Source of the DNA: Marsupella aquatica
Taxonomy: Eukaryota > Plantae > Marchantiophyta
Direction: 5' to 3'
DNA length: 64,000 nt
Assembly: GCA_973895155.1 (NCBI GenBank)
Contig: OZ316896.1
Span: forward strand, 8,391,539-8,455,538
The notes under the pieces were generated by a model. It had not been told where the DNA came from and did no database searches. It worked only from the letters and a program-made list of their open reading frames with translations. Positions 22,253-59,366 of this stretch are shown one piece after another. The first letter of the stretch is position 1. Every line of letters begins with the position of its first letter. The position numbers and the translations under genes are program-made.

Positions 22253-22554
22253 TGTTAGGCATCTAGGGTTTGCAAGTCGTGGCTCACTTACTATGGTCGC
22301 AAACTAGGTTAGGTGGACTAGGTTGCACACTATATCCCATACGGTGGTTGCTTGGATAGGAGGAACGCAGACTCATTGTTACGGAGCCAGTTGAGAGATG
22401 GGAGACTTGGTATGGCCAACAGGCCTAGAGTGCAGTAAAGCTCTTGTGTGTTCCCTTCAACTGAGGTGAACCACGTATCTCTCTGACTATGTCAACTACT
22501 TGTGCGTTGGATGGCTCATGGAATTGTTGTTGTGAATGTTGTGTTTTCTCAACA
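22253..22554 (+). mobile_element. Solo LTR, copy 3 (inverted, more diverged, internal deletions)
   Basis: TGTTAG...CTCAACA; reverse complement shares GGTTCACCTC, GAACACACAAGAG and GCCATACCAAGTCTCC blocks with the other copies; flanks AACCG/AGTCG. Confidence 0.75.
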
Positions 22555-23490: not shown

Positions 23491-24935
23491 TGGCAAAGTT
23501 TGGAAAAAAGGTTATTCAAGCTTAGTAGGATGCCCCCCATGAGTGTTTCAGTTATTTTTTATATAAAACCCCAAAGTTTGCAAAAAGGGTTGTTCAAGCT
23601 TAGTAAACTGCCCCCCATGATTGTTTCAGTTGTTTTAATTTGACACAGCAAAGTTTGCAAAAAAGGTTTGGAAGCTTAGTAAAATGTCCCCCCATGAGTG
23701 TTTCAGTTGTTTGACACAGCAAAGTTTGCAAAAAAGGTTGTGCAGGCTTTGTAAAATGCCCCTCGCCCCCATGAGTGTTTAAGTTGTTTTAATTTGACAC
23801 TCCAAAAGTTTGGAAAAAAAAACTTGTTCAAAAAAGTAATATGTCCCAACCCCCCCCCCCCCCCTGCCCACCCCCACATGAGTATTTCAGTTGTTTTGAT
23901 CTGCCATTGAAAAGTTTGCATAAAAGGTAAAATGTCCCCGCCATGAGTGCTTTAGGTGTTTTGATTTGACACGGCAGAGTTTGCCAAAGAGGTTGTTCAA
24001 GCTAAGTAACATGTTCCCCGGGCCCCATGAGTGTTTCAGTTGTTTTAACTTGAAAAGGCAAAGTTTGCAAAAAAGGTTGTGCAAGTTTTGTAAAGTGTCA
24101 CCCCCCCCAGTGTTCAAGGTGTTTTAACTTGACCCCCAAATTTTGCAAAAAGAGTTGTTCAAGCTTAGAAAAAAGCCCCCACCCACCATGAGTGTTTCAG
24201 TTGTTTTGATTTTCCATGGCAAAGTTTGCAAATAAGGTTGTTCAAGCTTAGTAAAATGTCCCATCATAGTGTATCAGTTGTTTTAATTTGATATGGCAAA
24301 GTTTGCAAAAAGGTTGTTCAGGCTTTTTAAAATGCCCCCACCCCCCATGAGTGTTTCAGTTGTTCTTGTTTGACACTGCAAAGTTTGAAAAGAAGTTTGT
24401 GCAAGCTTAGTAAAATGTCCTCCCTTGAGCGTTTGAGGTGTTCTAAATTGACACGGCAAAGTTTGCAAAAAAGGTTGTCCAAGCTTAGTAAAATGGCCCC
24501 TCTTGAGTGTTTCAGTTTTTTAATTTGACAAGGCAAGTTTACGGAAGGGTTGTTTCAACCTTAGTAGAATGTCCTCCCATGAGTGTTTCAGGTGTATTGA
24601 TTTGACATGGCAAAGTTTGAAAAGAAGTTTGTGCAAGCTTAGTAAAATGTCCTCCCATGAGTGTTTGAGGTGTTCTAAATTGACACGGCAAAGTTTGCAA
24701 AAAAGGTTGTCCAAGCTTAGTAAAATGGCCCCTCTTGAGTGTTTCAGTTTTTTAATTTGACAAGGCAAGTTTACGGAAAGGTTGTTTCAACCTTAGTAGA
24801 ATGTCCTCCCATGAGTGTTTCAGGTGTATTGATTTGACATGGCAAAGTTTGCAAAAAAGGTTGTTCAAGCTTAGGAAAAATGTCTCCCCCCCCCCTCCCC
24901 CCCCTCCATGAGTGTTTCAGTTGTTTTAATATGAT
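23491..24935. repeat. ~78-bp minisatellite, ~18 copies, with a 232-bp (3-unit) higher-order duplication
   Basis: Consensus GGCAAAGTTTGCAAAAAAGGTTGTTCAAGCTTAGTAAAATGTCCCCCCATGAGTGTTTCAGTTGTTTTAATTTGACAC; ~24381-24612 nearly identical to ~24613-24844. Confidence 0.95.
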
Positions 24936-25366: not shown

Positions 25367-28083
25367 CATTTTAACTACATTTTGTCACTAAAGTTATTTC
25401 AATTTACAATAGTGCCGCTGTTTTTGTGAAACCAAAGCCCGGATGGACTTGAAGATTGTCTCCCATCATCCCCATTGACTGTGACACATAAACTAAGCAT
25501 TTACACCTAATGATGAGAAAATCTAGGTAATCAATGTTCTAATTGTTTACCTAGGTTTCAAGTACCTTAGGAGACTATGTACACTTGAAAGTGAACTGAA
25601 AATATGTATTGAATGAAACAAAGGTTTACATCTAGTATTGTATTTGAAATTTTTGAGACCTCCGCGACGGCAAAGTAGTGGAAGCACTTATTGTAAGAAG
25701 AGTAACGCTCTTTTGAAAAATATCAATTCTTGGAGCTCTACAGTGGGAAATTTAATTGAAGTGCTCTTTGTGAAAGAGCAATGCTCTATGAAAAATAAGA
25801 TTTCTCAACAATACTCTCTTAGATTAAAATCTGAGATAACTCTGTTGCAGCAAAATAAGTCAAACCTCTTCTTAACACAAGAGCGACACTCTATGGAAAA
25901 TACAATTCTGTCTCAAGAGCAATGCTCTATGAAAATTAAGATTCGCACCCAGTTTTCCTAGTGGAAATTGTTATATTGGTTCATGGGGATTGTGTTGCTT
26001 GTTTCCCCCTTTTGTGGGATTTTTGCGATCTATATATTATAAACATAAAAATATTCGTGAGGAAAAAATTGAATTTATTTTGCTTTTGCTCATTGAACCA
26101 AACTACTTGAGGCGCTAGAGTAAATTCTGAATTGCTTAGTCTATATAATTTTATTACCACAAAGGCCAGATTAGGCATACAAATTTCTAAACATACCTTA
26201 CACATTTTATATTTTTTTATTGAACTCTAAAAAAATGGTTAAAGTGACTAGCTTGAGGGAAAAGGATATTAAGAGAATACAATGAGGCTTGCAATCAAGG
26301 CTGATCTGGTTGGTACATGGTATCTTTGAACAAAAAATGGACAAAGGTGGTACTTTGACAAGGTACTTTTGGACAGATGAACAAAAGTGATGATGTGACA
26401 TGATATTGTTGGACACAAGTGTAACAAATAATATCCAAGCATGTAAGTGTGTTTGAGTCAAGTTAATCCAAGTTTGATTTGTCCATAGGCCTTCATAGCC
26501 AACATATCAATCCATCCTGATTTTAAGTTTGTTTTTTTAATATTTACAAATATAACACAATCTTTGTATTTGGACAACTTTGTTAGATTGGTGAACTTGT
26601 TGTCCATATACAAAACCTTGGCATACTTGTAAATAGCAAACAAATAGCCCTAGTACTAACATTTGGAACATGCAAAAGTAGCTAAAAGTTGATAAATCTT
26701 ATCCAAGCAAAACGTTTGGCATGGGTATCGCTTGAACATTGTTCCGTGCAAACCCCTGATAGGATGTCATTTTGGGCCACCCGTGGGCGACTTGACATAC
26801 GATATTTATAACATGTATATAGATACGTATAGTATGGTGTCGTGATCGGAGATATTTATTCTCCAATACGGTAACCCGAGGTGAGTCAGTTGACAAATCG
26901 TTGACGACTCACGACTCAAAGAGGCTTTTGGCGGGTCTCAGGTTTTTGAAACTTTACGCCGTAAAATTATACTTTTTTGAGGAAAGGAGCATTTATACGC
27001 TCTCTCAAGCGTGAAGCGTGAACGAGAACGAGGTCCGCAATTCCTCGTGAATCCTCGTTGGTGAGTCTTCGTGACTTTGTCGTTGTGGAAAAGAGCATTA
27101 CTTTACGCGCTCTCCCTTTCTTTCTGATAAACAAGCAGGAGGTCCGCAATTCCTCCTGAATCCTTTTTGATGAATCTTTGTGACGTTGTCGTTGCGGAGG
27201 ATTGATAGGAGGAGGAGGGTTCCTGGTTTGTCGGGCGCTTTGGACGCCGAGTCGTAGTGCGATGTTGTGTGGAGCTTTGGAAGGACTAGCGCATTCGGGG
27301 CATCGGTAGTGAAGGTCCTCCGCTCGTGGATGCGAGTCTCTGCAAGGTAATCCAATCTCTTGCAGATATAAATAATACATTTGTAACAGGTGCGAGAGGC
27401 CTGTCAGTCAGCACTTCACTGTGGGAATCGATCGAGCTGCCGTCAACTCACTCTTCGGGAGTGTTTTTCTGTTTGGGAAAGCTCAAGCCGGTAGTGTAAC
27501 AAACTCGGTGTGTGCGCAAGCTGTGTCTTCAGCCAGTGGAGTCGATCGGAAGGAGTCAGCTGATTGCGCAAACGCTTGAGAAGACTTGTCCGCCCACTAA
27601 TCATTCATCGGATAGGAGTTGAGTGAATTCGATTTCTCTCCGCACCTGAACACCCTGCAGGTACGGGGACGGATTGCAGGTGTTCAGCGAACTCGAATTC
27701 ATCAATTGTGTGCGGTGTTGCAGGACAGGACGACCCTGTCCAAAAGGGTGCGATCAGGGAGACATTACGTTGTTCAGGAGGGGGCGGGGGCGATAAGGGT
27801 GATTCGGAACCTCTGGAGATCGTTTTAAAGTGGCTTGATCTGGAGCTCCGTGTTTGGTATTGCATAATTAAGCGGCAACTGTTCGGTCAAAGCAGTGAAT
27901 AGATCTTTGCTTTTTAAACACACAGCTTTGTTGAGTGTTTCTGGTATTTGAACCAAGAAAGGGAAGGAGATTGCGAGATTTGTTTTGAAGTGGGGCACAG
28001 CCAGGGTAAGGCAGGGGAGGGCAGGGTTCTCTAGTTCCCTTGCACGAATCTTTGATACCACCAATGATCGTAGGTTGCCGACT

Positions 28084-28716
28084 ATGGGGTTTCCTGGAGC
28101 GTACGGGATTGTGTTTCCACTGGCGGTATTCAAAATAGCGGTGACCTTGATGTGGATGAAGCAGGTTTGCGTATCGATCACGAACTTTGCGTTGGGCCGG
28201 GGGTGGGACAATCCGTCTGTTAGAATATTTCCAAACATTCCACTCTATTGGGCTGAATCTCAGGCTCAGGAAGCCACTTATGGTATCATATGTGCTCTAA
28301 ACGACGGGATGCTGGCTGCTGAGATCAGGGCGTCTATTCCAGTGGTCCGATTCAGAGACATATCTAACAAGAAGCTCCCGAGTAGTGACGAGGAGGAGGA
28401 GCCTCAGTGTTCGGTCTGCCTCTGTGATTTCACCGCAGAAGATAACGTTCGGCAACCCCCTCGCTGCTCTCATGTTTTCCACAAAGATTGCTTGGATCGG
28501 TGGACGGCGCATCATCAAACGTCTTGCCCTCTCTGTCGGTCTAGCCTCACCCCTGAGTGGCTAGAACAGGAAGATGCGCAGACGACGACACGACGCTCGT
28601 CGATTCGCAGCAGCAACAGCAGGGTCCGGACGACTGGCTTCCCGCATTTCGCAGACCAAGTGGTACAACTAGCGCTGCGAAGGGACGCAGCGGGCTGGGC
28701 CGTGGATACTACTTGA
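28084..28716 (+). CDS. RING-H2 (C3H2C3) E3 ubiquitin ligase, RHA/XERICO-like, intronless CDS, 210 aa
   Basis: ATG at 28084 (MGFPGAYG); hydrophobic N-terminus; CSVCLCDF-x11-CSHVFHKDCLDRW-x7-CPLCR RING-H2 motif; GC-rich leader upstream from ~26.9 kb. Confidence 0.9.
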   Translation: MGFPGAYGIVFPLAVFKIAVTLMWMKQVCVSITNFALGRGWDNPSVRIFPNIPLYWAESQAQEATYGIICALNDGMLAAEIRASIPVVRFRDISNKKLPSSDEEEEPQCSVCLCDFTAEDNVRQPPRCSHVFHKDCLDRWTAHHQTSCPLCRSSLTPEWLEQEDAQTTTRRSSIRSSNSRVRTTGFPHFADQVVQLALRRDAAGWAVDTT

Positions 28717-31278: not shown

Positions 31279-31623
31279 TGTTGAGCATAGACAACAATCG
31301 CAACGGCAAGCCCATGAACCATCCAACGCACAAGAGTCGACACAGAGAGATACGTGGTTCACCTCCACATGAGGCTACGCCCACGGGAACACACAAGAGC
31401 TTTACTGCACTCTAGGCCGACCGGCCATACCAAGCATCCACAGCGCAAACTCTCCCTATCTCTCAACTAGCTCCGTAACAGTGAGCATAAGTTCCCACTC
31501 TCCAAGCAAACACCGCTTGGATATAGAGTGTGCACACCATGACTAACCTAACCAAGTCTGTGACTAAGGTTAGCCTTAACTACGGTACAGTCGTAACTCT
31601 AGACCTAAGAGTAAATCCTAACA
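31279..31623 (-). mobile_element. Solo LTR, copy 4, perfect 5-bp TSD
   Basis: TGTTGAGCATAGAC...CCTAACA flanked by ATTTG (31274-31278) and ATTTG (31624-31628); inserted between two copies of a ~50-bp unit GGGGTGGCA.ATTT.T.GAAGTATATATGA.GGGAGTGTCC. Confidence 0.92.
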
Positions 31624-37029: not shown

Positions 37030-38170
37030 CGCATGAGAAAATCACTTTCCCAAATGGGACGTAAGAGATGCTAGGACTATCGTTTAGAGACCTAAATGAT
37101 GGAAGACAACCTCCTTTCGAGTTTCAGCTACCACTCTTTCTGAGTAGAGATAAGTTTTCGTGGTTATTCTCCCACCTTCCTGAGCTTGTGCACTAATAGT
37201 TGAAGTCGAAGAGATGATTTTTCACTGGGGAATATAGCACTGAAAAGGTGATGGTTTTAGTGAGGCGGTGCATGAGACGCGACTCACTCCAGTTGATATT
37301 TCATCTCATTGTTGTCTTTCTGAATTTTGACATCCTCAGATTATAAGGTTACAGAGACTTGTATATGTATTATTTACCCCCCAAATCTTCTCCTGCTGTT
37401 GGATTGTACTCTCTATCTCATGAGTGGTTTTGGGCAAATGGACTTCAGACCAATTGGCCGAGTCCATTATGATAATGAGGATTGTCTATGTAAATTAGTC
37501 ATACACATCGCTCGGCCTTGCCCTGAAAGTTCTTAATTTCTTAATCTGCTTCTTTGTTTGTTTCGATAATTTACGATAGTTTCATAGCCAGTAGAGATCC
37601 TCTTGGAAAGTGAATTTCGTCCAAGCTCGATAGTCTCTTGCCTTGTCCCTACTCTCTGCAATCTTATGGGAGGGAAGACCGCGCCAATCTCAATTAGAGG
37701 GGCCTAGTTTCTCATCAAGAGCTTGCTTTTGGCTCCTGTCGCTGCTGTCCCTGACTTTTGTGGACTACTTATGAGATTGTTTGGTTCCGAAAGTGTGTTG
37801 TTCTGGAGAGGCTAGACCTCTCATCAGTAGTACGTCTCACTGGATACGTCTTACTCGTTTCGCAGCCTTATGACAAGAGTTTGTATAGGCAACTTGATCT
37901 CCATGGTTGCAAAAGAAAGTAGCAACTTCTTATACACTGCACATACCTGCTGGCCCTGGTAATGCAAAATCTGTTTGATAATTTTGTGTAGTTCTTTTAC
38001 GTTTTCGCATGTATGATATGTCAGATATTTTGTCTGAATCTTTGGTCTCACGAACATTTCACATGCTTTTGATTGCAGGACATAATCCTTTTAAAACCTA
38101 TTGAAAGAAGGACTTCGAAGTTTCCTTAGGCTGAAGCTGGGGGTATGCTGTGGATCCGTAGCGTGTAGAA

Positions 38171-38680
38171 ATGGGAACGCGAGCATTTGGCTTGGCGAGG
38201 TCTGGAGGACCTCTTGCCCGGAAGGCATTTTGCAGTCCCTGGACTGCTGCCTCTTTTCTGGTGCGAAGATCCTACAGTATATACGAGGATTTCAATGTGT
38301 TCTCCGGGGCTGGCACAGGACGAGTGATCATTGACGAGTATGACGAGACAGGATTCAAAGCAAATGGTGTCAGGCATGAAGGTTCAATGATCTGCCTCGG
38401 CAAACTGGTCTTCTCATGGACTCCCCGTTCGTTTGCGGAGATCACACCCGAGAGTTTGTCACTCTTTCAGCTAATGCGGCCTGCTCCTGAAATCTTGGTG
38501 GTCGGATGTGGCAACAGGATAGGCAGAGTAAGCCCAGAAGTCAGAAACTTTTTAAAGTCCAATGGCATCAAAGTCGAAGCAGTGGACACGAGAAATGCTG
38601 CCTCAACTTTCAATATCTTGAACGAAGAGGGTCGGCAAGTAGCAGTAGCTATGTTGCCGTACGGATCGAGTAACCCTTGA
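38171..38680 (+). CDS. NDUFAF3: NADH dehydrogenase assembly factor 3 (Mth938/DUF498 domain), 169 aa
   Basis: Mitochondrial-type presequence, IDEYDETGFKANGV, PEILVVGCG, GIKVEAVDTRNAASTFNILNEEGRQVAVAMLP motifs. Confidence 0.93.
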   Translation: MGTRAFGLARSGGPLARKAFCSPWTAASFLVRRSYSIYEDFNVFSGAGTGRVIIDEYDETGFKANGVRHEGSMICLGKLVFSWTPRSFAEITPESLSLFQLMRPAPEILVVGCGNRIGRVSPEVRNFLKSNGIKVEAVDTRNAASTFNILNEEGRQVAVAMLPYGSSNP

Positions 38681-43700: not shown

Positions 43701-43813
43701 TAAGAAGAGGTCATGACGACTGCAGTACTTGGGTATTTACCATGTCCAAGCATGCTAGAGGAAAACAGCTGCCTTGTTGGCTAACGACCAGCTTAACGAG
43801 AGATTCCTCTTAA
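40784..43813 (+). CDS. Conserved uncharacterised, probably plastid-targeted protein, 5 exons, ~236 aa
   Basis: Exons 40784-41028, 41883-41937, 42473-42553, 43299-43417, 43603-43813 join in frame (711 nt). Ser/Ala/Arg-rich transit-like N-terminus; PNPQISLEEAVRLQMEALACNDEPRPDHGLEVMYYFA...YFGFPSDLYHFGHF...WVFTMSK...CWLTTSL resembles a green-lineage family. The exon 2 acceptor is less certain. Confidence 0.8.
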
Positions 43814-44552
43814 GGATTGTTCCGAAACTATGGTCCAGCAGGATTTCCAAGTTTGTGGTTTCTCTCCAAAATGATAATCAACCGGTTGGGAGCAGTATAA
43901 TTACCGTTTACACAGGTTTCTTCTTAGACGAATGTGTCTGATTTGTTCATAATATTGAAGGCAAAGACTACAAAAGAGCCTGATTCAAGTTTTAGTGAAA
44001 TCATTTGGCTGTCAAGCAAATCAATTAGACAAAGTTTGCCAATATCTAAAGTCAACATCAATCCACGTGCAACATTTAGTAGTTCATAGATGACAGAACA
44101 GTAGGCAAGTCCTCAGCCTTTCGTAAACACAAGAGATGGATTTTGTTGATTTTTGTGACCTCCTTGACACACTTAGAAATACCCTGGCCACTCAGCGCAA
44201 TGACTTTCCTGCCAACCTCGTGCTCCCTCTGATTTGCAACCACCTCCCGCCTTAATTAAGCAATCACTCTTCATGTGTAAAACGCTGGTGGATTCAGGTC
44301 ATCAACTTGTCCCTATCCCAAACTTTAAATTATTGGGGTATATAAGTAGTATTATGGCTACCTAATGAATTGCTGATGTCGTTTATCCAAAATCCATAAG
44401 AGGGTCAGTTAGTGACATTAAGATAACCTTTAGGAGAAATTCAATTAGTACCTCAAACATGTCTAAAGGCCTCCTCCTTTGCTAGTCCCAATTCTCTAAA
44501 GGCCTCCTTTGGTCCAATGGCCCCAGAAAAGCCAGCTTAAAATAGGGCAGCT

Positions 44553-44911
44553 TGTCATGCCAAGGGACAGTGCCTCTTGTGCACATCGGCATGTCCTTCG
44601 CATGTCCGCTAGGTATGTAGTTAGGGCTAGTATACTACTTGAGTTAGTGTCATGTTCTTATAGCGAGTCTGGGTCGTTCTTGAAACAAAGGTGTTTGTTA
44701 GTGTGATGCCTAGACCCGGTCCTATTTAGGGCATGTTTTTCTTTGTCATTTTTTAGTTCTTCTTGAATCGTTGTTGACAGAGCTCAGACAGTGCTCGTCG
44801 GTTCCGTACACGGGATTCACACAGTGATTCGTTAGATGCTCCCGGCCGATCTTGGCATCCCGTCGGTTTTCAATTCGATTTCAGTACACTTGTTTCTCTT
44901 ACGCCTTTTAT
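44553..44911 (+). repeat. Terminal repeat A1 (359 bp)
   Basis: Matches 53759-54117 with 13 mismatches by manual count, all transitions, no indels. Confidence 0.97.
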
Positions 44912-44923
44912 TCAAGAAGAACT
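44910..44923 (+). promoter_or_regulatory. Self-priming primer-binding site (Tf1-like)
   Basis: ATTCAAGAAGAACT is the exact reverse complement of AGTTCTTCTTGAAT at 44755-44768 inside A1; no tRNA-type TGG PBS is present; TATTTA lies ~30 bp upstream of 44755. Confidence 0.75.
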
Positions 44924-46153
44924 CGTCGAGATAGCAGTGAGGGGAAGAAGATTACTTGTGGCGGTTTCGACAATTTCTGGTGAAATCATTGCAATTTCTT
45001 CTACGAATATCGGAGCGACGAGTTGAACGTTATGGATTTATGTTGTTATGTGTATACTTAAGTGTATACACATATCAATGCTCCCGGGGGGGTCCGGAGT
45101 TCCTTTTCTGGTTGCACCCGCGACTCCTTTGCTCCTTACTGTTGCTGCCGATTGCTGCCGACCTGTTGTTGCCGACTGCTCGACTGCTTTTGGGGTCATT
45201 TTTGCATTCCCGGCCACAGCTGCAGGCGAGTTTGCCTCGGCCACCTCGCGACTGCATAGGACCGAGCCCCTATTACATCCTTACGTTCTCGGCCATGTGC
45301 CTCCCCTCGGCACTTCTCCCCTTCCCGGCCATTTTCGTTTCATCTCGTTTTCCGATGCAGTTGCAGCTCCCTGCCGTTGCAATTAAAACAGGGGAGAGGG
45401 AGTGAGAGTCGAGGGCACGAGGCCCTATGGAGAATAAAGGAGGGTGAGGGGAGGTGAAGCGAGAGTTGGGCACGAAGCCCCTATACAGCATTAAAGGAGG
45501 ATAGCACAAGCAAAAGCAAAGAGGAGGAGGAGCGACAGCGAGTGAAAGGGCACCAAGCCCTAGGTAGCATTAAGTGGGGAGAAGCCCTGCCACAAGCATG
45601 CGAGGGAGAAGGCACACGGCCCCATTCAGCATTAACAAGGGGGAGGGGAGTTAAGTCGACTCCCTTCTCGGGAGTGCTCCTGCCAGGGCACGAGCCCAAA
45701 TTATTACATTGCAGGAGAGGAGGGGGAGTTCGTAGTCCCTCCATGGGGGCCCGATGCTTTTCTTTTTGCCATCTCTTTCCTTTCGCACTTGCCACGCTGT
45801 GTCTTGCCTTTTCCTCCTTACGCCTTTTGTGCTCCGCAGCCTATATGTACATAGGGCATCGTGCCCTCCCGTTTCTTTCCCTCGCCGGCCATAGAGACTC
45901 CTCAACTTTTCCATAGCCGTCCGACTAGCGCTGCATAGGGCCGTGTGCCACGAGTGTGGTCCGGCTGCAATTTCCGGGGCCACAATGGGCCCCAAATGTG
46001 TATACACTTAAGAGGGGCCTGGTTCACATATTCGACTACCGCTGCATAAGGCCCATATTTCCCCAATTTCTTTGCTGCCGCCACATGTCATCTACATAAG
46101 GTTAAGGGCCCGGCATACACATCAGACCGTCGATCCGGCAAGCACAACACAGC

Positions 46154-48189
46154 ATGTCAGCAGAGGAGCCCAGAGGTAGCAGCATATCGCCACCGACACC
46201 CAGGTACCATTTACGGAGTGATCCACGACCATTGGTGCCAATTTCATTGGAGTCTCGGCAATTTCGACGACGCCAGCAAACAGCAGTAGCACCCACACCA
46301 CGCAATCCTTCTGCTACATTTGGCGGTCGCTTTCCCACTACCCCGAAGCCTGCTATCGCTTCTCTACCCTTTACCCCTTCTGCATCCGTGGTTGTTCCTG
46401 CTTCACCGACATACAGCATGGACGCCAGCCACTCATCTGGCCGCATTGAACGCTTCAGCGGGCGGCCAGGCACTGTTTCTTTACGTGAGTTCAAATCCAC
46501 TTTCTACACTGTTGTTTACGAATTGGAGTTGAAGTACGGCAGCAATTTCACAAATGCTTTTGCATTTAAGCAGCTAGCCAGGTATGTGCACCATGAGGCT
46601 TTGGATGTGTATGAGCAGCACTCTCAACGGCTGCTTGCTGTCACACAATTGCCTAACCCTGCCTATGCCAGTGCAATTGCGGCTGCCTCACAATTGGCAT
46701 TACAGAATGCCATTGCAGCCCATGTTGCTGCTCTTGCCACTTCCCCTCCTACTCCAGTTCCTACCACTGCGCCAGTTACTCCCACTATCTTGGCACAGGC
46801 TACATCAAGCATTTCTCCCACCATTGATTCCCCTGCCTTTGCTGATCCAGTGGCTGAATTTTTCCAGGTTCTCGAATTGGAATTCCCCATCAAGAGTGCT
46901 GACAAAATCATGCAGTTGGCCACCTTTGTGAGGCAGCGCAATGAAACCTTGAAGATGATGTATCGCCGGCTTCTCAAGCTGAAGGAGGACACCCAGAGCA
47001 TCACTGACCTGGAAGCTGCTCATCGTTATCTTCGCGCATTGGAGGGCACACCAGCTCTCCATTCGCAAGTGTTGCAGCAAGTATTCTCAGAGTTTGGAGA
47101 CAGCTACACCCTGCTCAATGTCTATGACACTGCTGAGAAATTTGAGTTGGCCCATGCACATTATGAGGCCAGTATTGCACGTCCACCGCGATCCAGGTAC
47201 CAGACTGCTGCCCCTATACTGGCCACCCCTTCCCGTGTGCCACAGTATGGTTCCAAGACCAAGCCAGTCCATGCTGTTTTCATGCTGCCATCTTGCAACT
47301 ACTGTGGTAACCCAATCACAAGGCTAATGAATGTGATATTGTTGTTGAGGACCTTTCTTGTGATTTTTGCGGGAAAGTGGGTCACTTGGAGGCAGTTTGT
47401 TTTGCCAAATTCCCAGAGAGGAAGCAGCTACGACAACAGGCCACTCATCCTGCTCCTGTTTCCACTCCCCCACCAGCTAGGAGGGCTCCTACTACATCAA
47501 CTGCTCCTCCTTCCAGTGGCAAAGCATCTAGTACCAACAAACCGCCCAAGCAGCAACAGAAGCAACCAGCTCAGAAGGAGGCTCACAACGCACAGGCAAC
47601 TCAACTCCAGTCTCTGACTCATGAGGTTGAGTCCCTACGTGCCCAACTTGCCAACATCAAAGGCAAGTCAACTGCCTCTGCTGGTCCTTCTCAACCGGCT
47701 GGTCACGTGCAACCCATCGCTGGCCCAGGCACCACTGACAGTTCAACACCTCTACCCCGCTCTTTCTATGGCTTGCCATTTGATGCTCATATGGGTGAGT
47801 GTGTGCTGTCCTCTGCTCCACAGCCTGGTCTTACAGCAGAATTTTCAGATTCATTCTGCCCTTCCTATTTTGCTTACCAGCACGCCAGTGCTGCCTCCCG
47901 TATTGCTCCCACACGCCGCATTGTACAGGCTGATGGTCTTGCTGCCGGTCCTATGACTAGAGCCAGGGGAGCTCGGGCTGTCATGCCCCAATCTTTTCAG
48001 CCACTCACACTTGCTGAAGAGCGCACCTTGTTGGCGAGGGGGGAGGGAGCTGCAGCTACATCCATTCCACCACCAGGTGCTGCTGACATTTCACAGGGAG
48101 TTGTTTCTCCTGAGCTGCTTGAGCATTTCACCTCTGGTATGGCACAAAGGATTCTTACAACTCCACTTTTCAGTTGCCATGATTTATAG
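46154..48189 (+). pseudogene. Retrotransposon Gag with two CCHC zinc knuckles plus linker (frameshifted)
   Basis: Capsid-like region RIERFSGRPG...QRNETLKMMYRRL. A 1-bp deletion near 47314 breaks CNYCGNP(N)HKANEC, followed by CDFCGKVGHLEAVC. The in-frame TAG at 48187-48189 continues into the 48250 ORF. Confidence 0.85.
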
Positions 48190-48549
48190 CTGGATGCTAG
48201 AGCTGTCCTTAGGGCGCTAGAGGGTTCACTGCATTCTTTATCAGCCCCTGTGACACTGGTTTTGGAGGTCCAATCTCATGTACATATTGGACCTTCTTCT
48301 TCTCCATTACATGCTTCCATTGGTTTGGCTATCCCAGTACCAATTTCCAGTGGTAGCGATGACAGTATTGCTGCAGATTGTGTGACCAGAGTTACACTAG
48401 ATTCTGGTCATGTTGCTCCATCTTTCCTGACTATGTTGTTGAGTGGAAAGACCGTGGATACTAACTCCCTTCACAAGGTACCTCATCATCTGCCAAAAGT
48501 GGTGCCTAGCGACAGGACTTCAGTTTCCACCACTATTGCCATTGTTGAC

Positions 48550-48900
48550 AACAGGAATTCAGCGGTCAAGTTGGAGGGTCACACTCCTCAGGTGGTCATG
48601 CTAGACACAGGCGCTCAACCAGTGATATTGGGCATTCAGTTTGCCAAGAAGATGGGACTGTTGACTGATCATTTACAGCAATCCAGATGGCATATTCGGA
48701 CTGCTAGTGGCACTATGGAGGATGTGCTGGGTGAGAGTTCTACTTTACTCACTCTCACTTTTAATGGAGGTACAGATCAGGAACTGCATTTCCCAGTCAG
48801 ATGTTTGGTTACCAATGTCACTACGTATGATGTGCTCATTGGCCAGGAGGTTTTGTTCCCACCAGGTTTTACCATTGACAACTGGCATGAGCATGCATAC
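48550..48900 (+). CDS. Retroviral-type aspartic protease domain of the polyprotein
   Basis: VMLDTGAQPVILG (DTG at 48604-48612), IRTASG flap, YDVLIGQEVL motif. Confidence 0.9.
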
Positions 48901-49266
48901 TACAGAGTTGATTGGCATACTGATGGCTCACACTTGGGCTACATTCCACTTGATTTGCATGGTGCCCATACACCTATGGCTCACCACTGTGTGTTGAAAG
49001 CAGTGCACACAGCTACCTATGTCAACCACCCATTGCAGGATTGGATTGAGGAGGATGACGATGAGGTGGCTGCTGCACATGCTGTTGCACGTATAGCAGC
49101 ACTTTCCAGCAACGTGAATCATCAACCAGAGGTGGTACAACAGCTCCAAGCAGCCCATGGGCCTTTGGTGGCTGCATTGCGCAAGTTTGAAGACCTTGGG
49201 CAGCACAATGGACAGCCAATAGCCCCAATCTTGAGCGCACCAGTTACATGGACTCCTGCTCCGGAT

Positions 49267-50200
49267 GGCCTTACATTGCTTGAGCTTTTTGGTGGCATTT
49301 CTACAGGCCTGGAAGCTCTCCTACAGTCCGACATGGTGGTGAAGCAGTACATCTACATGGACATTGATCCAGGTGCAAGGCAAGTGGTTGAATCCTGTCT
49401 GCTGGAATTTTCAGAACGATTTCCCCAACAGTTTCCACACAATGCATGGAAGTCTGCATTTTCTTTCTTCCCTCCAGATATCCAGCTTGTCCAGCACCGA
49501 CACTTAACCCTTCTTGGTTCCCTCAATTTGATCATAGCTGGTTGGGAATGCCAAGGGTTTTCAGCTGCTGGTCATGGTGCTGGATTGCATGACTCTCGTT
49601 CTAGCCTTTTCACAACATTGGTTCAGATTCTCATCTGGGCTCAATCCCTTTATCCTGCTGTTGGTTATATCATTGAGAATACTCCATCTCAGTTTGACCA
49701 GCGTCCACAGGTCAAAGAGGATTTTAGTGTGGTCCAGCACTACTTGGGACCACCCCTTCTCATTGATGCAGTGCACTGTGGTTCTTATGCACATTGTCTT
49801 CGTAACTTTTGGACTAACCTTGCACCACCTTCCTTGCTGGAGCTAGCTTTTCACCACACATCCAGGGATACTAACCTCACAGTGGACCAGATTTTGGATC
49901 CTGACAGTTCTTGCCAACCAGTTACCCGGCAAGAGCCAGCACCTTGGTATCCAGCCAATACCATTGGACAGCCCCGTGCTGCTTGGCCTACATTTGTATC
50001 CTTTCCAGGTGCACATGCCTTTCAGGGTGATGGTCCTGGCCTGGTTTATCGATATTCTACCGGTACATGGGATGAACCTAGTCCTGAGGAGAGAGAACAG
50101 GCTATGGGCTTCCAATCCGGTACTACAGGTCACACCCAGATCACCAGGCTGGCCAGGAATGCTTTACTTGGCAGGGTAATGGATCTTAATGCTCTCACTT
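49267..50200 (+). CDS. C5-cytosine DNA methyltransferase domain embedded in the polyprotein
   Basis: Motif I LLELFGGISTG, II YMDID, IV IIAGWECQGFSAAG, V RSSLF, VI IIENTP, VIII AHCLRNFWTNL, IX PEEREQAMGF, X RNALLGRVMD, in canonical order and in frame with the protease. Confidence 0.9.
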
Positions 50201-50606
50201 GGCTTCTGGTCACTTGCATCCTTTTTCAGATGTACATTCATCCAGCATCTGGAGTTCCAGCTCTACCACTCCATGGTGCTTCTACATGGCATCCCGACCA
50301 GGTGCACTTACCTCTATTCAACACTCACCGCTTCAGTCCAAGTGTTGGGGGGGGAGGAGGTCCCTTGTAACGTGGCTGACAATATTTCTGAGTTTCATGG
50401 TGTGGACCAACTCAGATCAGCAGGTACAACAGGCCTTGGAGAGACCTCGTCACCTTATCAGCAGCATGCTAGCAGCTTGGACAGTGGAGGTTGGCACTTC
50501 TGGCTCTTCAAGCACGAGTACATCAGGTCCTATTCCTAGTGTTGCCAACTACACATTCATCATGGGCAACCACTTGAGTAAAAGATAGAAGGACCAGCTG
50601 CTAAAT

Positions 50607-53540
50607 TTGCTCCTCAAGCATGAGAACGTGTTTGCTTTCTCTATGAAGGACTTGGGTAAGTGCAAGACTATGCAGTTCTCCATTGAGTTGGCTGATGAAA
50701 CACCTATCTTCAGGCGGAGACACCGTTTGAGTAAGCATGAGTGGCAGCTGGTGGATGAGAGGTGCCAAGAGCTCTATGAAGCTGGTCTTATTCAGCCATC
50801 TACATCAGATTTTGCAGCAGCTACAGTGATGCCAACAAAGAAGGATTCCAGTGGATTGTGGACAGAGAAACGCATGTGTGGGGACTACAGGCCACTGAAC
50901 CTGGTCACACCCCAGGACAGGTACCCCATGCCACGGCCAGAGGAGCTATTTGATAGCATTGGAGACTCAGACATCTTCACTCTTGTGGATCTAAGGCAAG
51001 GCTTCAACCAGATTTTGCTGCTTGCAAAGGATCGCAAGAAAACAGCTTTCCATGGTAGTAACCAACTATGGGAGTGGTTGGTGATGCCATTTGGCTTGCA
51101 GAATGCGCCCATATTCTTTCAAAGAGTCATGGACCAGGTTCTTCAAGGTGCTGAGTTTCTGAAATGCTACATTGATGATGTGTTGGTCCACAGCAAAGGA
51201 TTTGACCAGCATCTACTTGACCTTGAGGAGCTATTCATGAGGCTTAAGAAGGTGAACCTAAAGATACACCCCAAGAAGTGTGAATTTGCTGTCAGATCAA
51301 TAGTATACCTTGGGCACCGCATTCTTCCAAATGGAACCATGGCTCACTGGGCCAAGGTAGTATCCATCTTGGAAATGCCCACTCCTACTGATGTTCACAC
51401 TTTGAGGAGTTTTATTGGGTTGTGCAATTACTACCGGATCTACATCAAAGATTTCAACACCATTGCACACCCATTGTATGCTTTGTTGAAAAAGAATGTG
51501 ACTTGGACATGGAGTACAGATGCTGAGGTAGCATTTGCCACTTTGAAGAAGAAGCTCTCAGAATACCCAGTGCTGAGAAGACCTGATTTTAGCAAGGTCT
51601 TTGTGCTCCACACAGATTGGAGTGCCCTTGGGATTGGTGCCATTCTAGGCCAACATGATGAGGAAGGTAAGGAGTACGTCATTGCCTATGCATCCAGGAG
51701 CAACAATCAGGCCGAGAGTCATTATTCTTCTTATGAGGGTGAATGCCTTGCTGTTGTGTGGGCTGTCATACATTACAGGCCCTACCTCTATGGGACCAGG
51801 TTTACTCTCTACACCGACCACCAGCCCTTGAAGTGGTTGATGACTAACGACAAGCTTACTGGCAAGCTTGCTCGTTGGGCACTCATCCTCCAGGAGTATG
51901 ACTTTGAGGTAATTCATAGGCCTGGTTTGACACATCAGAATGCTGACACTATGTCCCGCAGCCCTTTGATTACCTCTGATGATTCCTCAGATGCACGGCA
52001 AGATTTTGACCAGGTTTCCATCCTACCTACATTTCATGCATCTACCTATCTTGCTTTGCTGCCATGCTATGTTGTTGACCAACCTATGGTGGACATATGG
52101 GAGGACAACGACACTCTGAGATTTCTGCAGCATGGGGAGTACCCCACCCATGTTACTACTGCCCAGAGAGACCGAATTCAGCAAAGGTCCAAGTGCTACT
52201 TGTGGAAGGGAGATCATCTTGTGCGCTGCCTGCCAGACAGGGAAGTGGTGGTTCCACCCATTCATGAGAGGGTTGGCCTTATCCGTAAGGTACATTCTGA
52301 GCTTGGTCATTTTGGTGTTAAGAGGACTTATAGCCTCTTGGTCCCCCATTATCATTGGAGAGGCATGCATGGCCAGGTTCGAGATGTTATTGCCCAGTGT
52401 GAGCAGTGTGATAGGGTAAGGACTTCTTTCACATCTCGGCAACCCACACTTCATCCACTCCCTATTCAGGGCATGTTTTATCGTTGGTCATGTGATTTGG
52501 CTGGAGAATTACCCCTCACATTTTGGGGTAATCTCTACATCATGATCATGATAGAGCATTTCTCCAAGTGGATAGAACTTGTGGCATTGCCGGATAAGAC
52601 CTCCCGTAGCACCAGCCAGGCATTCCTGCAACAAGTTCTCAGCCGCTTTGGAGCTTGTGCAGAATGTCTCACTGACCAGGGCTCAGAGTTTAGAGGAGAG
52701 TTCTAGGAGCTGCTTGATCAGGCCCTCATTGATCATCGTCGGACATCACGAGATCACCCACAGGCAGATGGCTTGGTAGAGCGCATGGTTCAGACATGCA
52801 AGAAGGGCCTCCGGAAGATCTGCCTCACCAAAAACAAGGAGGATTGGGACCTGGCCTTACCCTACATTGCCATGGGGTACAAGATGTCCAGACATGCATC
52901 ACTGTCTAACTTTTCTCCCTACTTCTTGTTGTTTAGTCGTCACCCAGTTCCACCTTCTGCTATTGCTGCTCACATGCTTCAGGTGGTAGACTTGGATTCA
53001 GCTGTGATTTGGTCTGATGTGATCTCTGAGAGGGCTGCCCTATTCAGGAGGGTTATGCCCATGGCCATGGAGAATTTGGCCATTGCACAGCACAGGGACA
53101 CACTGCGTTATGCACACACACGAGGGGGCACTTTTCAGCCCAAGGTCAGGAAGTTTGATGTGGGAGATTTTGTGTACTTGCAGCGGCAAGCTAACGACAC
53201 CCTGGACACCTCTACTAGTCGTACTATTCTCAGGGTTAAAGTTATTCGACCGTCTGGAGTGCTAGAGTTACAAGGGGCAGATGGGCGCACAATTGCTAAC
53301 AATGCCAAGAATTGCGCCCCTTGTCATCTGCCTAACCTGGATCCCACCATTGTGACTTCTACTTGGATTCCACCTGTGGACTACCCTTGCAAAGTGTGTT
53401 TGCGAATTGATGATGCTTACCAGATGCTGCTGTGTGACAATTGCAATGGAGGGTACCATCTTTTCTGCCTTCGGCCTGAACTTACCCAGGTGCCAGAAGG
53501 GTTATGGTTTTGCCCTTCCTATGCTCCACGTGCTACCTGA
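50607..53540 (+). pseudogene. Pol: reverse transcriptase, RNase H, DDE integrase and C-terminal PHD finger (in-frame TAG at 52704-52706)
   Basis: RT: RMCGDYRPLN, DLRQGFNQI, MPFGLQNAP, YIDD (51168-51179). RH: HTDWS, EGECLAVVWA, TDHQPL, NADTMSR. IN: HSELGH...CEQC, WSCDLAG, TDQGSEF, DGLVERM. PHD: CKVC...CDNC...HLFC...CPSY (53388-53522). Confidence 0.95.
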
Positions 53541-53573
53541 ATTTTCTTCAGCCCTCCTTTTGGCTGTGGTCTG

Positions 53574-53580
53574 GGGGGGG
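53574..53580 (+). promoter_or_regulatory. Candidate polypurine tract
   Basis: G7 run immediately 5' of repeat B1 and ~35 bp after the pol stop codon. Confidence 0.6.
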
Positions 53581-54294
53581 ATACAAAGGTTTACACCTCC
53601 ACTACGTACATACCACTTCATTTGCTTTTTCTTGGCACTTGTGAATGTGATTGGATTTTTTCTATGCATGTTGGTTGCTAGCAGCTTGCACATATGCATT
53701 GCCGGTGACTTGTATGTTTTCGATACACTATGGCTACGATACTATATGTCACGACAGCTGTCATGCTGAGGGACAGTGCCTCTTGTGCACATCGGCATGT
53801 CCCTCGCATGCCCGCTAGGTATGTAGTTAGGGCTAGTATACTACTTGAGTTAGTGTCATGTTCTTATAGCGAGTCTGGGCCGTTCTTGAAGCAAAGGTGT
53901 TTGTTAGTGTGATGCCTGGACCCGGTCCTACTTAGGGCATGTTTTTCTTTGCCATTTTTCAGTTCTTCTTGAATCGCTGTTGACAGAGCTCAGACAGTGC
54001 TCGTCGGTTCCGTACACGGGATTCACACAGTGATTCGTTAGATGCTCCCGGCCGATCTTGGCATCCCGCCGGTTTTCAATTCGATTTTAGTACACTTGTT
54101 TCTCTTACGCCTTTTATCATACAGAGGTTTACACCGCCACTACGTACATACCACTTCATTTGTTTTTTCTTGGCACTTGTGAATGTGATTGGACTTTTTC
54201 TATGCATGTTGGTTGCTAGCAGGTTGCACATATGCATTGCCGATGACTTGTATGTTTTCGATACACTATGGCTACGATACTATATGTCACGACA
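53581..54294 (+). repeat. 3' terminal repeat block B1-gc-A2-c-B2
   Basis: B1 53581-53756 and B2 54119-54294 (176 bp, 6 mismatches by manual count); A2 53759-54117; the B1/A2 junction is the palindrome GACA-GC-TGTC. Confidence 0.97.
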
Positions 54295-56744
54295 AGCTGA
54301 CATTCATCCATACCTTTGAGAATTTATATGTGGATTGACATGATGGCGAGGGTGAAGCCCCTATGTGTTAGGATAGATAACATTTGAATATTGAGGTGAT
54401 TTCCTTTAGATCAGGTAGAAGTTGTAAGTAAATATCATTCTTCACAAATTGTTTTCTCCAAAGAATTGTTTGTCGCTATGTATTTAGTTTTACATCTTTA
54501 TTTGTAGTATCAAAATGGACACCATGACATCTCTAAGACTTGTGCCACATAGCACACGAGTACATTGACAGAAACCCTAACATTCTTACTAGCCTGCCCC
54601 CCAGACTAACCCGATATTACTAACGAGCCCCCCAAATTAAATTATTATCAACCCGTCCCACATTTCGTATTCATGTGAATATTAACTCATATATGGGTTC
54701 CTATTGCAATGTGGCAAGTCACTATTGGCTAGCCGCCACCCCCACGGCCCCCCTTCATCTTCCCAGTTACATTTTCTTGAGTAAAAATGAGGGCCAAAAA
54801 TGTTGGGTTTTTGTGAGGGGAGTGTGGAGCAAAAAACAATGTATTTTTTGCCCCTCCTGGACCTGCAACTGTGCTAAGGGGAAGGGGGGCCCAAGGGGGT
54901 GGCCACAGGTTAGGCTAGCCAATAGTGACTTGCCACATGGCAACTGGGAATCCCTATACAAGAATACTGACCCCCATATTGACCTGAATACAAAACGGGG
55001 GACACATTGATAATTAATTCTGTTTGGGAGACAGAATAGTAATATTGGGTAGTTTGGGGACATGTGACAAAAAGCTGTTTTATTTCTATCATAAAGCAAT
55101 GGCTCTGACAATGCATCTCTATTTTGGCATACTTAAGATTTTACCATCAATCAATGTTTATGCAACCTAGACAAAAGTGAAATTCCACCAAAATTTATAA
55201 AACAGGGAAAAACAAAGTACAATGAAAGAGAAAAAGAGGGCAAAGAGTACAAACACCCAACAAGAAAAAATAAATCTAGAGTGTAAAAAACAGCTTAGTG
55301 TTGAAAAGCATACACCCAAAAAAAAATTGATTCCAGGAGTTAGACTTCATCTGAAATTGCAGTTACAAAGTTCCCTCTTTACCCTACTAGCCTGACTGCC
55401 CATGCTTTTCTCAGGCCACAGTTGCCCTTCCCACGTCTTCCCTAGCCTATATTTTGCCACCCGAGAGTCACAGGCTCCACTGTAGACCTCAGGCCCCCAA
55501 GAGTGTAGGTGTCTATTGCTAATTATTAGTTCCATTTTATCCCCAAGTCATAACAAGTCATAATGTTAAGTTAGACTTCCAAAACAAAGGTCTCTGTACC
55601 AACACCGGCCCCCACATTGCCGTGCCTAACATTTACTGCACAAGTAACAAAATGAATTTGACTCAAGTAGGTGTAGAAACGAGGAAACCATTACCTGGTC
55701 GTAATAGTGAATTCCAAGCAAAAAAAGACACGCGGCAGGGTTGGTGATCTCCATTATTAAAGTGGGTTCTTTTGGGCCTTGAAACTTGAAAGGGTGCAAT
55801 GTATTAAAATAAACTTTTCCATGGGGTACAGCGCAGGGCAAGGCCTACATGAGGAACACCAACCACAACGTCGGTCTTCCTTTGAATTAATATCATCACA
55901 CACCATAAATTATTGTCGGTAGTCTTCCGGCTCGCTCTTTCCCAGAATTGGATTTTTGGGGGTAGTTTTGTGGGGATGCTATTAACGTTAGGCACCACAA
56001 TGATAATAAAGTTTCCTTTGAGACAAAAAGAATCAAATGAAGCCAAGATCCACCATCATGTTAGACACAGTGCTCCTCTGGACCACATGCTGGTGTTCCA
56101 TGGGAGTTTGGGGCTTATTACTTCATGTTTATAAGTCCTAAAATAATTTTAGTTTTGCATCTGTAAGGCAACTGGTGAAGGAGGAGAAACAAAAAAACAC
56201 AAATCCTAATATCTGAGATTAACGCAATGAGAATTAGTCAAACAGAACTTACCCCTCCGCCAACTGTGATGACAAACTCATCCAAAATGGTCAAAAATAT
56301 CACTCTCACTTATAGATTCCTCTAGCAGGTCCCCATAACTATAAAATGTTTGAATTTATTAATATCAAGTTACTAAAATTAAACTGAAATTTTGCCAAAT
56401 GTGGTCCATGGGGTTTGGTAGACCCTCTCGTGATCCATGTTGGCTTCCAATTCCAAAAAGGACAGAAAAGAAGTTGCACGGCAAAGGTATACAACCAATT
56501 AAAGTTATGCCATTACACGTTAAAAAAAACAGCAAACGAAAGGACCAGATCTCCAGAATGACACCCGGCACATGGACCCGGAAATATACGTCCAGGCCCA
56601 AAGTCATAGAACAAGATACGTAAATCCTGTCAGGAGAAGAGGTTACCGGTGTGTAACCATTTTTACAAGGGCCTGCTATAGTCATAATCTGGTGTCCTGA
56701 AAAGTTGAGCCGGTAACCTCTTTCCGGGCAGGAGTTACGTACGC

Positions 56745-57202: not shown

Positions 57203-58526
57203 CCCACAGTTTCGCGTCATCCAGCGGTTCACAAGGCCTCCTGCTCATCCAGAGTGTTAGGAGGTAACCAATCCGAAGCGCCTCCTGCGATCTGGCCCAT
57301 GGCCTGTATCCAATCGGCAAAGCCCACGTCACGGCGTGGTGTCCGGTAACGTGGGTTGGATGGTGGGTGGGTCGCATGAGTGCGGGGATGTGAGGGGGGA
57401 GGGAGAGAGGCAATCGAAGGGCAGCGCTGCTTCGCGACCTTTCCAGATCTTGAAAGGAACCCTACGTGTGTGCTCCGCGCCTGGTCCCACTTTTATTCGT
57501 CTTCCCTTTCTACGAACGAACTAGCGAGATATCCAACAGGAGAGAGGTATTGCTCTTCGTGCTGCAACGAACACAACAACACACGACTGTAGTGCTCTTG
57601 TCTGGCGACCTACCTAATCTCTGCTGTCTGCCGCCATTAAGCTCGCGTCGTGCTCGCTCTGTCGATCACATTGAACTTCTTCCTCCCGCTTTTGAGCCAG
57701 TCAGTCAGCCAAGGCGTCTCTCTCTCACTCTCTCTCTCCCGGTGCTTTCCTTTTTTGGGTGACACAGTCGTGCTGCGGGTGCAAGGTTGTTTCCCTTGCG
57801 TCGTCGGTCAGTCAGACAATATTATTGAATCCCTTCCTCTTGCATTTCAGCGTTTCAGCCAAGGCTTCGCTCACGCTCCCGGTGCCGCGTCATCATAGTC
57901 GTGCGAGATTGTTTTCCTGGCTGCCGGTTAGTCGGACACGTTTCTCTTGGCTTTTCGGTCTCTGTGGGACACGTTAATTGGAGCGACTCCTTGACACCAT
58001 CGATTGATTGATCGAAGGACGCGGAAGATCGGTGTGGAGCGTGGTTTCCTTCTCGACGCCGAGTTTGTGTTCGACTAGTATAAGAAAGTGCTGGTTACGT
58101 CTGGAGGAGTTATTTTGTAATCTAAGAAGTTTGAGTTCGCGCTTACACCGTGCCTCTTATTTCCTTCGCGGAGTATCGTACCCTTTCGATCCTTGAACTA
58201 CTGCGCCGGCGCTTGCGTTTCGTCGTCCACAAGACAAGATAAGATAACCCTCTGGTTGGCGGTGTCCAGACCGAAGGCTTCGATCATTTCCCTGACATTC
58301 ACAAGCTTCCTCGGCCCGTGATACGGTGTTCTTGTAAAGTGTTAGGAAGCCCGGTTTTGGTTATTGTTTCTCGGCGGCCTACCTTCTGTTCGACCCTTCT
58401 AGAAGCGCTCTCTTCTGTTCTGATCTATTTCGAGCGACTCGATCGAGGCGTCCGCAGGCGGTAACGTACCGGTCGTTATATCTATTTTGGTCGAAGAATA
58501 GAACCTGTTTTTGCGATAATCTGAAG

Positions 58527-59366
58527 ATGGTTGCCACGGATAAAGAAGTTGGTCTAAATATGGGCATGTCAGGTCGTGGAAAGTATCTGCCAATGAAGGC
58601 CAAGAATAAGTGGAGGCGTAGGAAGTTCTCAAGAAGGAATGAGCCTATGTGGAATCAGGGTCCTCTGCTGATGCATAATGGTGCATATGAACCCCCGAGA
58701 CTTACAGAGTTGCAGCAGCAAAACCGCCTGAAGACCAGAAGATTCTACCCAAGGAAATTGCGCGCACCTCGCGCTCCCCGTAACACCTCGTCCTTTATCA
58801 TGCGTGCCAAGAGGCCGGGAGGCTTGGCTTCACTTGTCTCTCCTGCTACCCCTGCAATCCTCCCGACTCCCGTCCTTTCTCCCGCTCCTCGATACAGAGA
58901 GGGTCTCGTAGACGAGGTTAACAAAGAGTGGGGTGTAGACGGTTATGGTTCTATGAACGGTTTGATCCGGTTGCGGTCTGTTGAAGAAGGCGAAAGAGAT
59001 GAGTTTGGCGGTACCGGTGAGAGTGAAAGTGAACTTGAGCAAGACACCCACGCTGAGTCTGTACAGCAGCTTGAGCAGCGGATAGATCATGGCTTAAGCC
59101 GTTTCGAGATTGTCTATCCGTCTCCGTCCGCTGCTAATGACAATAAACAGTCCACGGAGGTCCGCATGGAGGAGCTTGAGAATCATATTGCTCAGCTAGA
59201 AGATGAGAATCTGTCTCTGAAAGAAAATGTTTACTTGTTGCAGCAGGAATTATCAGAGGCACGGAGGCGACTACTTGTGCAAGACGCGGGAGATTATGGA
59301 TCTGATGAGAACGCCGGGGTCTGTCAAGAAAGAAGTGGTGGAGATGTATCTTGTGCACAAAGCTAG
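58527..59366 (+). CDS. PRL1-interacting factor A-like protein, intronless CDS, 279 aa
   Basis: Plant family motifs APRNTSSFIMRAKRPGGLASLVSP, TPAILPTPVLSP, KEWGVDGYGSMNGLIRLR, LSRFEIVYP and a C-terminal coiled coil; CT-rich leader from ~57.6 kb. Confidence 0.85.
   Translation: MVATDKEVGLNMGMSGRGKYLPMKAKNKWRRRKFSRRNEPMWNQGPLLMHNGAYEPPRLTELQQQNRLKTRRFYPRKLRAPRAPRNTSSFIMRAKRPGGLASLVSPATPAILPTPVLSPAPRYREGLVDEVNKEWGVDGYGSMNGLIRLRSVEEGERDEFGGTGESESELEQDTHAESVQQLEQRIDHGLSRFEIVYPSPSAANDNKQSTEVRMEELENHIAQLEDENLSLKENVYLLQQELSEARRRLLVQDAGDYGSDENAGVCQERSGGDVSCAQS

Follow-up and report, generated by a model that had tools for sequence, protein, structure and literature searches.

A methyltransferase-bearing Gypsy retrotransposon of the liverwort Marsupella aquatica with split direct repeats and a putative integrase attachment site inside its long terminal repeat

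The 64,000-nucleotide stretch analysed here (the window; GenBank assembly GCA_973895155.1, contig OZ316896.1, positions 8,391,539 to 8,455,538 of the forward strand) comes from the liverwort Marsupella aquatica and carries, at window positions 44553-54294, a Ty3/Gypsy retrotransposon with an unusual arrangement of its long terminal repeat (LTR) sequences. Sequence and alignments give the order A1-gag-protease-methyltransferase-reverse transcriptase-RNase H-integrase-PHD finger-polypurine tract (PPT)-B1-GC-A2-C-B2, with TG...CA outer ends and the 4-bp target-site duplication AGCT on both sides (44549-44552 and 54295-54298); the repeat order, the outer ends and the duplication are those that a first-pass annotation of the sequence had noted. 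All stranded features of the element lie on the plus strand. A1 (44553-44911, 359 bp) begins with the putative left attachment end TGTCATG and appears to represent the downstream part of an LTR, that is the end of U3, R and U5, with R and U5 assigned from a TATA-like box and a predicted self-primer (see below). At the other end of the element, the PPT (TCT followed by eight G residues, 53570-53580, with the G-run at 53573-53580) abuts B1 (53581-53756, 176 bp as judged by alignment to B2), the upstream part of U3, which closes with the putative right attachment end CACGACA. The GC spacer (53757-53758) and A2 (53759-54117, delimited by alignment) follow, and B1-GC-A2 makes up the sole complete LTR of the element (537 bp). 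One extra C (54118) then marks the A/B joint, a presumed join of raw cDNA ends, before B2 (54119-54294, delimited by alignment), which again closes with CACGACA. A1 and A2 are 96.4% identical, and B1 and B2 96.6%. The element termini TGTCATG and CACGACA constitute a 7-bp inverted pair with one mismatch, and inside the element both termini are fused via GC into the palindrome GACA-GC-TGTC (53753-53762), the predicted integrase cut site, which has no second occurrence in the window.

No further copy of the element was found in the window. Both outer junctions are crossed with 0 differences by contigs of sequencing runs X3 and X4 (43800-44581 and 54268-54825), one run possibly representing the source sample, while none of the contigs listed from four runs spans B1-A2-B2. 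The run contigs also show that the family is multi-copy; in X4 the element reached depths of 1200-1700 against 22-24 for its flanks, a depth that is not to be equated with copy number. In all four runs, contigs of other copies of the window family contain A/B joints that lack the extra C.

The coding region follows the Ty3/Gypsy domain order (gag, protease, reverse transcriptase, RNase H, integrase), with a C5 cytosine methyltransferase placed between protease and reverse transcriptase. The gag region (46106-48189), consisting of two overlapping and broken reading frames with zinc-knuckle-like motifs, was assigned by similarity only, namely its likeness on inspection to the N-terminus of protein P0124, and gave no Pfam gag match. 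The next segment (48190-50370) encodes the protease (around 48565-48855; PF13975 and PF13650) and the methyltransferase (around 49240-50290; PF00145 and alignment). Reverse transcriptase (PF00078), RNase H (PF17917), the H2C2 finger (PF17921) and the first part of the integrase core (rve, PF00665) lie at 50589-52706, and the remainder of the integrase with a C-terminal PHD finger (PF00628) at 52707-53540. The frame carries a frameshift near 47310, stops at 48187, 50368 and 52704 and a change of frame before 50589, and the window element is a decayed copy. The Pfam matches to H2C2 and rve bear out the claim of the first-pass annotation that the element carries an HHCC-DDE integrase. In line with that annotation, no tyrosine recombinase was detected by Pfam in five main and 14 side open reading frames (ORFs) of the window on both strands, nor in the long ORFs of three distant relatives (L105, L108 and L109, see below). 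A hidden tyrosine recombinase was ruled out on the basis of the 19 window ORFs. The methyltransferase, which that annotation had not mentioned, shows variation in its catalytic motif, with ECQ in place of PCQ in the window (49240-50290), in the bryophyte sister family described below and in several relatives, and PCQ in others.

The integrase differs from that of typical Gypsy elements in the spacing of its catalytic residues. Alignment to the Ty3 and PFV integrases shows a one-residue gap, and the distance from the second D to the E is 34 residues in the window element and in 31 related proteins. One protein has D(33)E, and a further 65, animal-named with few exceptions, have the typical D(35)E; these counts cover the proteins matched by the search pattern. 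D(34)E was also found in all of the 19 further relatives scored. The nearest named proteins are from the liverwort Calypogeia fissa (87% identity in the integrase), followed by Sphagnum, Marchantia, Klebsormidium, Closterium and Haematococcus. A quick reverse transcriptase tree split the methyltransferase- or PHD-bearing rows from animal Gypsy rows with a support of 99, with an unresolved backbone between the window element and P0079. This protein, a Klebsormidium methyltransferase-reverse transcriptase-integrase protein, is 44.5% identical to the window element over 921 amino acids and also has the D(34)E spacing.

To compare the layout across copies we used a sister family obtained by a metagenome scan, from which the best 80 of 339 matching stretches were taken. 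Its methyltransferases are 56-72% identical to that of the window element and closest to Sphagnum-named proteins. A repeat was present in 56 loci, the other 24 of the 80 being short or truncated stretches with neither repeat. Duplicate assemblies were merged (L055 into L054), and three 3' ends were set aside, two of which are broken inside B (L079/L082 and L081/L085) and one of which lies at a contig edge (L048). All 25 distinct 5' ends start at A (TGTCATG in 24, TGTTATG in one) with no B upstream. An LTR unit of the form AB was ruled out, as B never follows A1 in any 5' end. The 25 distinct and complete 3' ends comprised 15 with B-gc-A-B, nine with B alone and one rearranged. Exact 4-bp duplications flank six of nine complete A..B-A-B copies (two others have one mismatch and one has none) and four of five A..B copies, and all of the duplicated sequences differ. 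The layout, the separate duplications and the variable A/B joints (see below) that the first-pass annotation had suggested looking for in other copies were thus all found in this family. The duplication of the window element, AGCT, is also the centre of its internal palindrome; this looks like a coincidence, because the duplications of the sister copies are unrelated (GGTC, CCAC, CCAA, ATTG, GTGT, ATAA, CATC, ATGG, ACAA and CATA). Target specificity for AGCT was ruled out by the same variation. In one locus (L028, position 5967) a copy is inserted into another of the same family.

The TG...CA ends and the 4-bp duplication agree with Ty3/Gypsy elements, whose duplications measure 4-6 bp. What is absent is the pair of complete end LTRs with attachment sites at the PPT and the primer-binding site (PBS); there is a single complete, internal LTR, with the putative attachment site 176 bp from the PPT. 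The internal spacer was GC, AC, GT or AT (GC with C-to-T decay) in 16 of 16 sister copies, where the palindrome is present in decayed forms. Beyond this family, six relatives with 45-54% integrase identity were recovered by scanning genome contigs, and the four that reach far enough (46-54% identity; L105-L108) carry GACAGCTGTC 56-108 bp after the G-run. The palindrome was found in none of the other 27 loci, with a chance expectation of 0.17 in 173 kb, and across the window element and its relatives it lies 56-176 bp past the PPT. One of the four, L106, has the B-gc-A-B arrangement with two identical B copies. Two others, L105 and L108, assemble as single-LTR cycles in which A runs into the leader and gag, a result of either collapsed or circular assembly. 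The contigs of these relatives (L105-L110) are assigned to bacterial or archaeal metagenome-assembled genomes, although the elements are Gypsy elements of eukaryotic type and probably represent contamination; in some of them the pol frame is uninterrupted. L109 lacks a methyltransferase between protease and reverse transcriptase. As it is 74% identical in DNA to the palindrome-bearing L108, the internal palindrome is probably independent of the methyltransferase. A first scan of prokaryote genomes found no relatives, and neither did scans of viral contigs, which gave 23 loci with weak methyltransferase matches only and one further weak locus. The split layout is a trait of the lineage and not a one-off.

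The positions of the priming signals define what the reverse-transcribed LTR would be. In all of the families compared, the PPT lies directly before B. At the other side, 14 nt across the end of A1 (44910-44923) are the exact reverse complement of a motif within A (44755-44768), located about 30 nt past a TATA-like box (TATTTA, 44723-44728). Such a self-complement, 13-15 nt and exact, is found with different sequences in three families (the window family, the sister family and L105), and 0 of 200 shuffles reached it in each. In most sister copies TATAAAA is present at a matching spacing. Of the 25 sister 5' ends, 17 had a best 14-nt pairing of 13-14, in one case at another site, and the rest reached 11-12. 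Between the window and sister families the PBS and primer differ by two compensatory changes, and L048 shows another. We predict that these sequences constitute a self-priming PBS of the Tf1 type, with the transcript probably starting at the motif within A; the primer of Tf1 is 11 nt. A tRNA-type PBS was rejected on account of the lacking TGG start and the fit of the self-complement, with tRNA matches left unsearched. The first-pass annotation had missed this self-priming signal. Since the PPT abuts B and the predicted self-priming PBS abuts A, the reverse-transcribed LTR would be B-gc-A at both cDNA ends, in agreement with the 537-bp LTR deduced in the first-pass annotation, and the cDNA termini would therefore lack TG and CA. 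Taken together with the element termini and the palindrome, this supports the earlier suggestion of an integrase attachment site within the LTR.

The sequences of the repeats also bear on the origin of B2. The identity of B2 to the B1 of its own element is 0.915, compared with 0.864 between elements (0/10000 permutations), and the B2 copies are about as similar among themselves (0.867) as the B1 copies are (0.859), so that there is no separate B2 lineage. B2 thus appears to have been copied from its own B1. The divergences of the A pair and the B pair correlate (r=0.95, n=8). Because B2 resembles its own B1 and has no lineage of its own, and because the pair divergences are correlated, the members of each pair were probably identical at insertion. 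With regard to the A/B joint, 15 sister joints were compared: eight were blunt, four had lost 2 nt, one had lost 3 nt and one had a changed base, while the remaining one (L043) has kept both ends and its duplication but lacks some 145 bp of B. In the window family blunt, -2 and +1 forms occur. In L054 and L055 the breakpoint of an inversion falls exactly at the A end. The variable joints support the proposal of the first-pass annotation that A and B meet where cDNA ends were joined. The inversion itself (L054, 8872-16564, also in L055) is internal and separates the A end from the B start, which is slightly shortened; each of the two is connected to a position inside the element.

We consider it probable that the DDE integrase acts on the upstream LTR of the cDNA, cutting its palindrome and inserting the TG/CA ends that this creates, and that the raw cDNA ends become linked to one another. 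Transcription would start in A1, and the RNA would prime itself on the PBS in the manner of Tf1. Ordinary strand transfers, as suggested by the positions of PBS and PPT and by the pairing of B1 with B2 and A1 with A2, would then yield a linear B-gc-A-internal-B-gc-A molecule whose ends have no attachment site. If the palindrome were cut with a 2-nt stagger at CA^GC-TG, the products would be two CA-3' ends with overhangs of 2 nt, resembling processed LTR ends and of the kind that integrases use for insertion. The inserted copies do end in TG...CA, lack the GC and are flanked by varied 4-bp duplications. The A end would be linked to the B start by end-joining, either before insertion, giving a circle, or afterwards; the inserted copies fit either order, and the explanation includes the case in which a circle forms first and is then always cut at its upstream site. 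The layout has a polarity, as the extra unit is always found at the 3' side. A-B-A-internal-B copies are absent, and the cut would therefore be confined to the upstream LTR. In standard LTR reverse transcription the upstream LTR becomes double-stranded first. We conjecture that this LTR, available about 9 kb of synthesis earlier, captures the integrase. The A-internal-B copies could stem from one-LTR circles, from a double cut or from later recombination between B1 and B2. Cleavage of a palindromic LTR-LTR junction has been described for the integrases of HIV-1 and foamy virus in the available text of PMC1905944 and PMC1180852. With somewhat less assurance, we lean towards the wider view of a widespread Gypsy clade of the green lineage whose mark is the D(34)E-PHD integrase, the methyltransferase being only a secondary one. 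In this view, the attachment sites have been shifted from the cDNA ends into a palindrome fixed in U3, and integration takes place only via restriction-like internal cleavage of the upstream LTR, with the cDNA ends joined.

Several observations weigh against this reading. The joint type partly follows the subfamily, -2 and -3 joints being found in all four members of one clade and once elsewhere, a pattern that random end-joining would not give and that could reflect an inherited joint or a subfamily-specific removal of the primer. Among the distant relatives the layout itself is seen in one family only (L105/L106), as L105 and L108 provide no test of it, and in L107 the palindrome is not followed by a second B within 1.5 kb. 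L032 and L103 lack a duplication. The sister copies, assembled from short reads and probably stemming from a small number of related hosts, amount to a single family, and it is on this family and on the distant relatives that the family-wide test rests. It should also be underlined that the mechanism is read from inserted copies rather than from cDNA, circles or enzyme activity.

The first-pass annotation had suggested that one LTR of an ordinary 2-LTR circle is cut. In its plain form, with ligated cDNA ends and an integrase that cuts either internal palindrome and inserts the circle, this accounts for the observed order, the TG/CA ends, the 4-bp duplications and the variable A/B joint, and it can draw on the cutting of circle junctions by retroviral integrases (PMC1905944 and PMC1180852, in the portions available). 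However, such a circle should give A-B-A-internal-B equally often, and this second product was seen in none of the 25 5' ends: the count is 0 against nine complete copies (binomial p=0.004), and a second B unit occurs at 0/25 5' ends versus 15/25 3' ends (Fisher p=3e-6). The A-internal-B copies could be collapsed A-B-A-internal-B, but the rescue requires that all A-B-A arrangements were collapsed and most B-A-B arrangements kept. A free choice between the two palindromes is unlikely.

Polarity is explained directly by a route like that of PAT and Ngaro, in which the transcript extends through B2, new copies inherit both B2 and the joint, and a circle is made on the template of the internal B-A junction, its new B/A junction being the one that is inserted. 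The repeat order matches that of PAT and Ngaro as presented in the available part of PMC4157794, and the partial tracking of subfamilies by the joint type would also fit. This route is nevertheless disfavoured by the absence of a separate B2 lineage, since subfamily indels are common to B2 and its own B1, by a PPT and a predicted self-priming PBS that flank B-gc-A like an ordinary LTR, by joints that vary within a subfamily and within the window family, by the presence of 4-bp duplications and by the lack of a tyrosine recombinase, and we regard it as quite improbable. From the single copy in the window and from the absence of a contig spanning the 3' repeats, one might suspect that an ordinary LTR element has here been misassembled or rearranged just once. 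Such an origin is scarcely credible, as the layout recurs with independent duplications in the sister family, and in L106, as ordinary B-A...B-A copies number 0 among 25 5' ends, and as the layout is reported for KnitGypsy-Dnmt3 in the consulted sections of PMC5890265. The upstream-LTR cut with joined cDNA ends is thus the explanation we prefer.

LTR retrotransposons and retroviruses are assumed to integrate via attachment sites located on the termini of linear cDNA. It is an old question whether integration can really use fused LTR ends as its substrate, with support coming mainly from integrase cleavage experiments, and a lineage that seemingly has no other attachment site makes this question biochemically testable. 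If true, the wider view given above would set these elements apart from other LTR retroelements in the way they integrate, and would provide a natural example of obligatory cutting at fused LTR ends. The layout also offers a route from an ordinary LTR to split direct repeats. Tools that search for paired LTRs, such as LTR-FINDER in the accessible description of the REXdb survey, would miss such elements or set their boundaries wrongly, and this blindness may explain the near-silence on a multi-copy lineage of bryophytes and algae.

Other features of the window are a small inverted-repeat element just to the right of the insertion (54770-54912), possibly a miniature inverted-repeat transposable element, with contig joints across it and raised depth; a degenerate tandem array of units of about 77 bp (23422-24933); and a dispersed 300-bp repeat with three direct copies and one inverted (20661-22554 and 31279-31578). 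The host genes include a spliced kinase-like gene on the minus strand (8106-16143), which we take to be SCY1-like, as well as RING-H2 (27952-28716) and DUF498 (38162-38680) genes and an ORF without a Pfam match (58338-59366).

The first-pass annotation knew of no description of the mechanism for plant Gypsy elements. The layout itself has been reported before. For KnitGypsy-Dnmt3 of Klebsormidium nitens, the Fig. 4c legend of de Mendoza et al. 2018 (PMC5890265) notes repeats as in DIRS together with Gypsy domains, the DIRS arrangement being A-coding-B-A-B in Fig. 1e of the same paper. Gypsy domains, a C5 methyltransferase inside Pol and repeats of this type are all found in the window element, and it probably belongs with KnitGypsy-Dnmt3; equating P0079 with that element is an assumption. 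In contrast to the present analysis, the available text of that paper is silent on termini, duplications, a palindrome, the priming mode, polarity and mechanism, and K. nitens is the sole species from which it reports the element. No other paper using the name KnitGypsy-Dnmt3 was found in the literature searched, and a 2026 preprint mentions streptophyte Gypsy-DNMT3 without a word on the repeats in its available portion. The search, which covered neither Repbase nor most subscription journals, brought up the 2018 legend but, among the hits listed, no account of termini or mechanism; nor did it turn up a publication on the palindrome, the predicted self-priming, the polarity or the D(34)E mark.

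Among the other systems, Troyka, which had been put forward as a comparison group, likewise is an atypical LTR retrotransposon with a DDE integrase, but according to the available text of PMC12440569 it has paired LTRs, CG...CG ends, 3-bp duplications and animal hosts; the window element does not match it, and identity was ruled out by ends, duplication length and hosts. Tf1/sushi elements and the plant Tcn1 chromoviruses (PMC6317226, as far as available) share the predicted self-priming, with a PBS complementary to the inferred transcript 5' end, but differ from the window element, which has split repeats and a PHD finger, no chromodomain being matched by Pfam at the integrase C-terminus. In foamy virus and HIV-1 the integrase likewise cuts a palindrome of two fused attachment ends, which in the accessible parts of PMC1180852 and PMC1905944 is formed only after ligation of the cDNA ends and serves a side route, whereas that of the window element is encoded in U3 with a 2-nt spacer and is apparently the sole attachment site. 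PAT, TOC, Kangaroo and Ngaro have the same A1-internal-B1-A2-B2 split direct repeats, as seen in the available part of PMC4157794, whereas the window element combines them with a DDE integrase, a protease, a PPT, a PBS, TG...CA ends and 4-bp duplications, and has no tyrosine recombinase. As judged from its sequence, the window element would thus work like a Gypsy retrotransposon with relocated attachment sites, by the mechanism we infer, rather than like a tyrosine-recombinase element.

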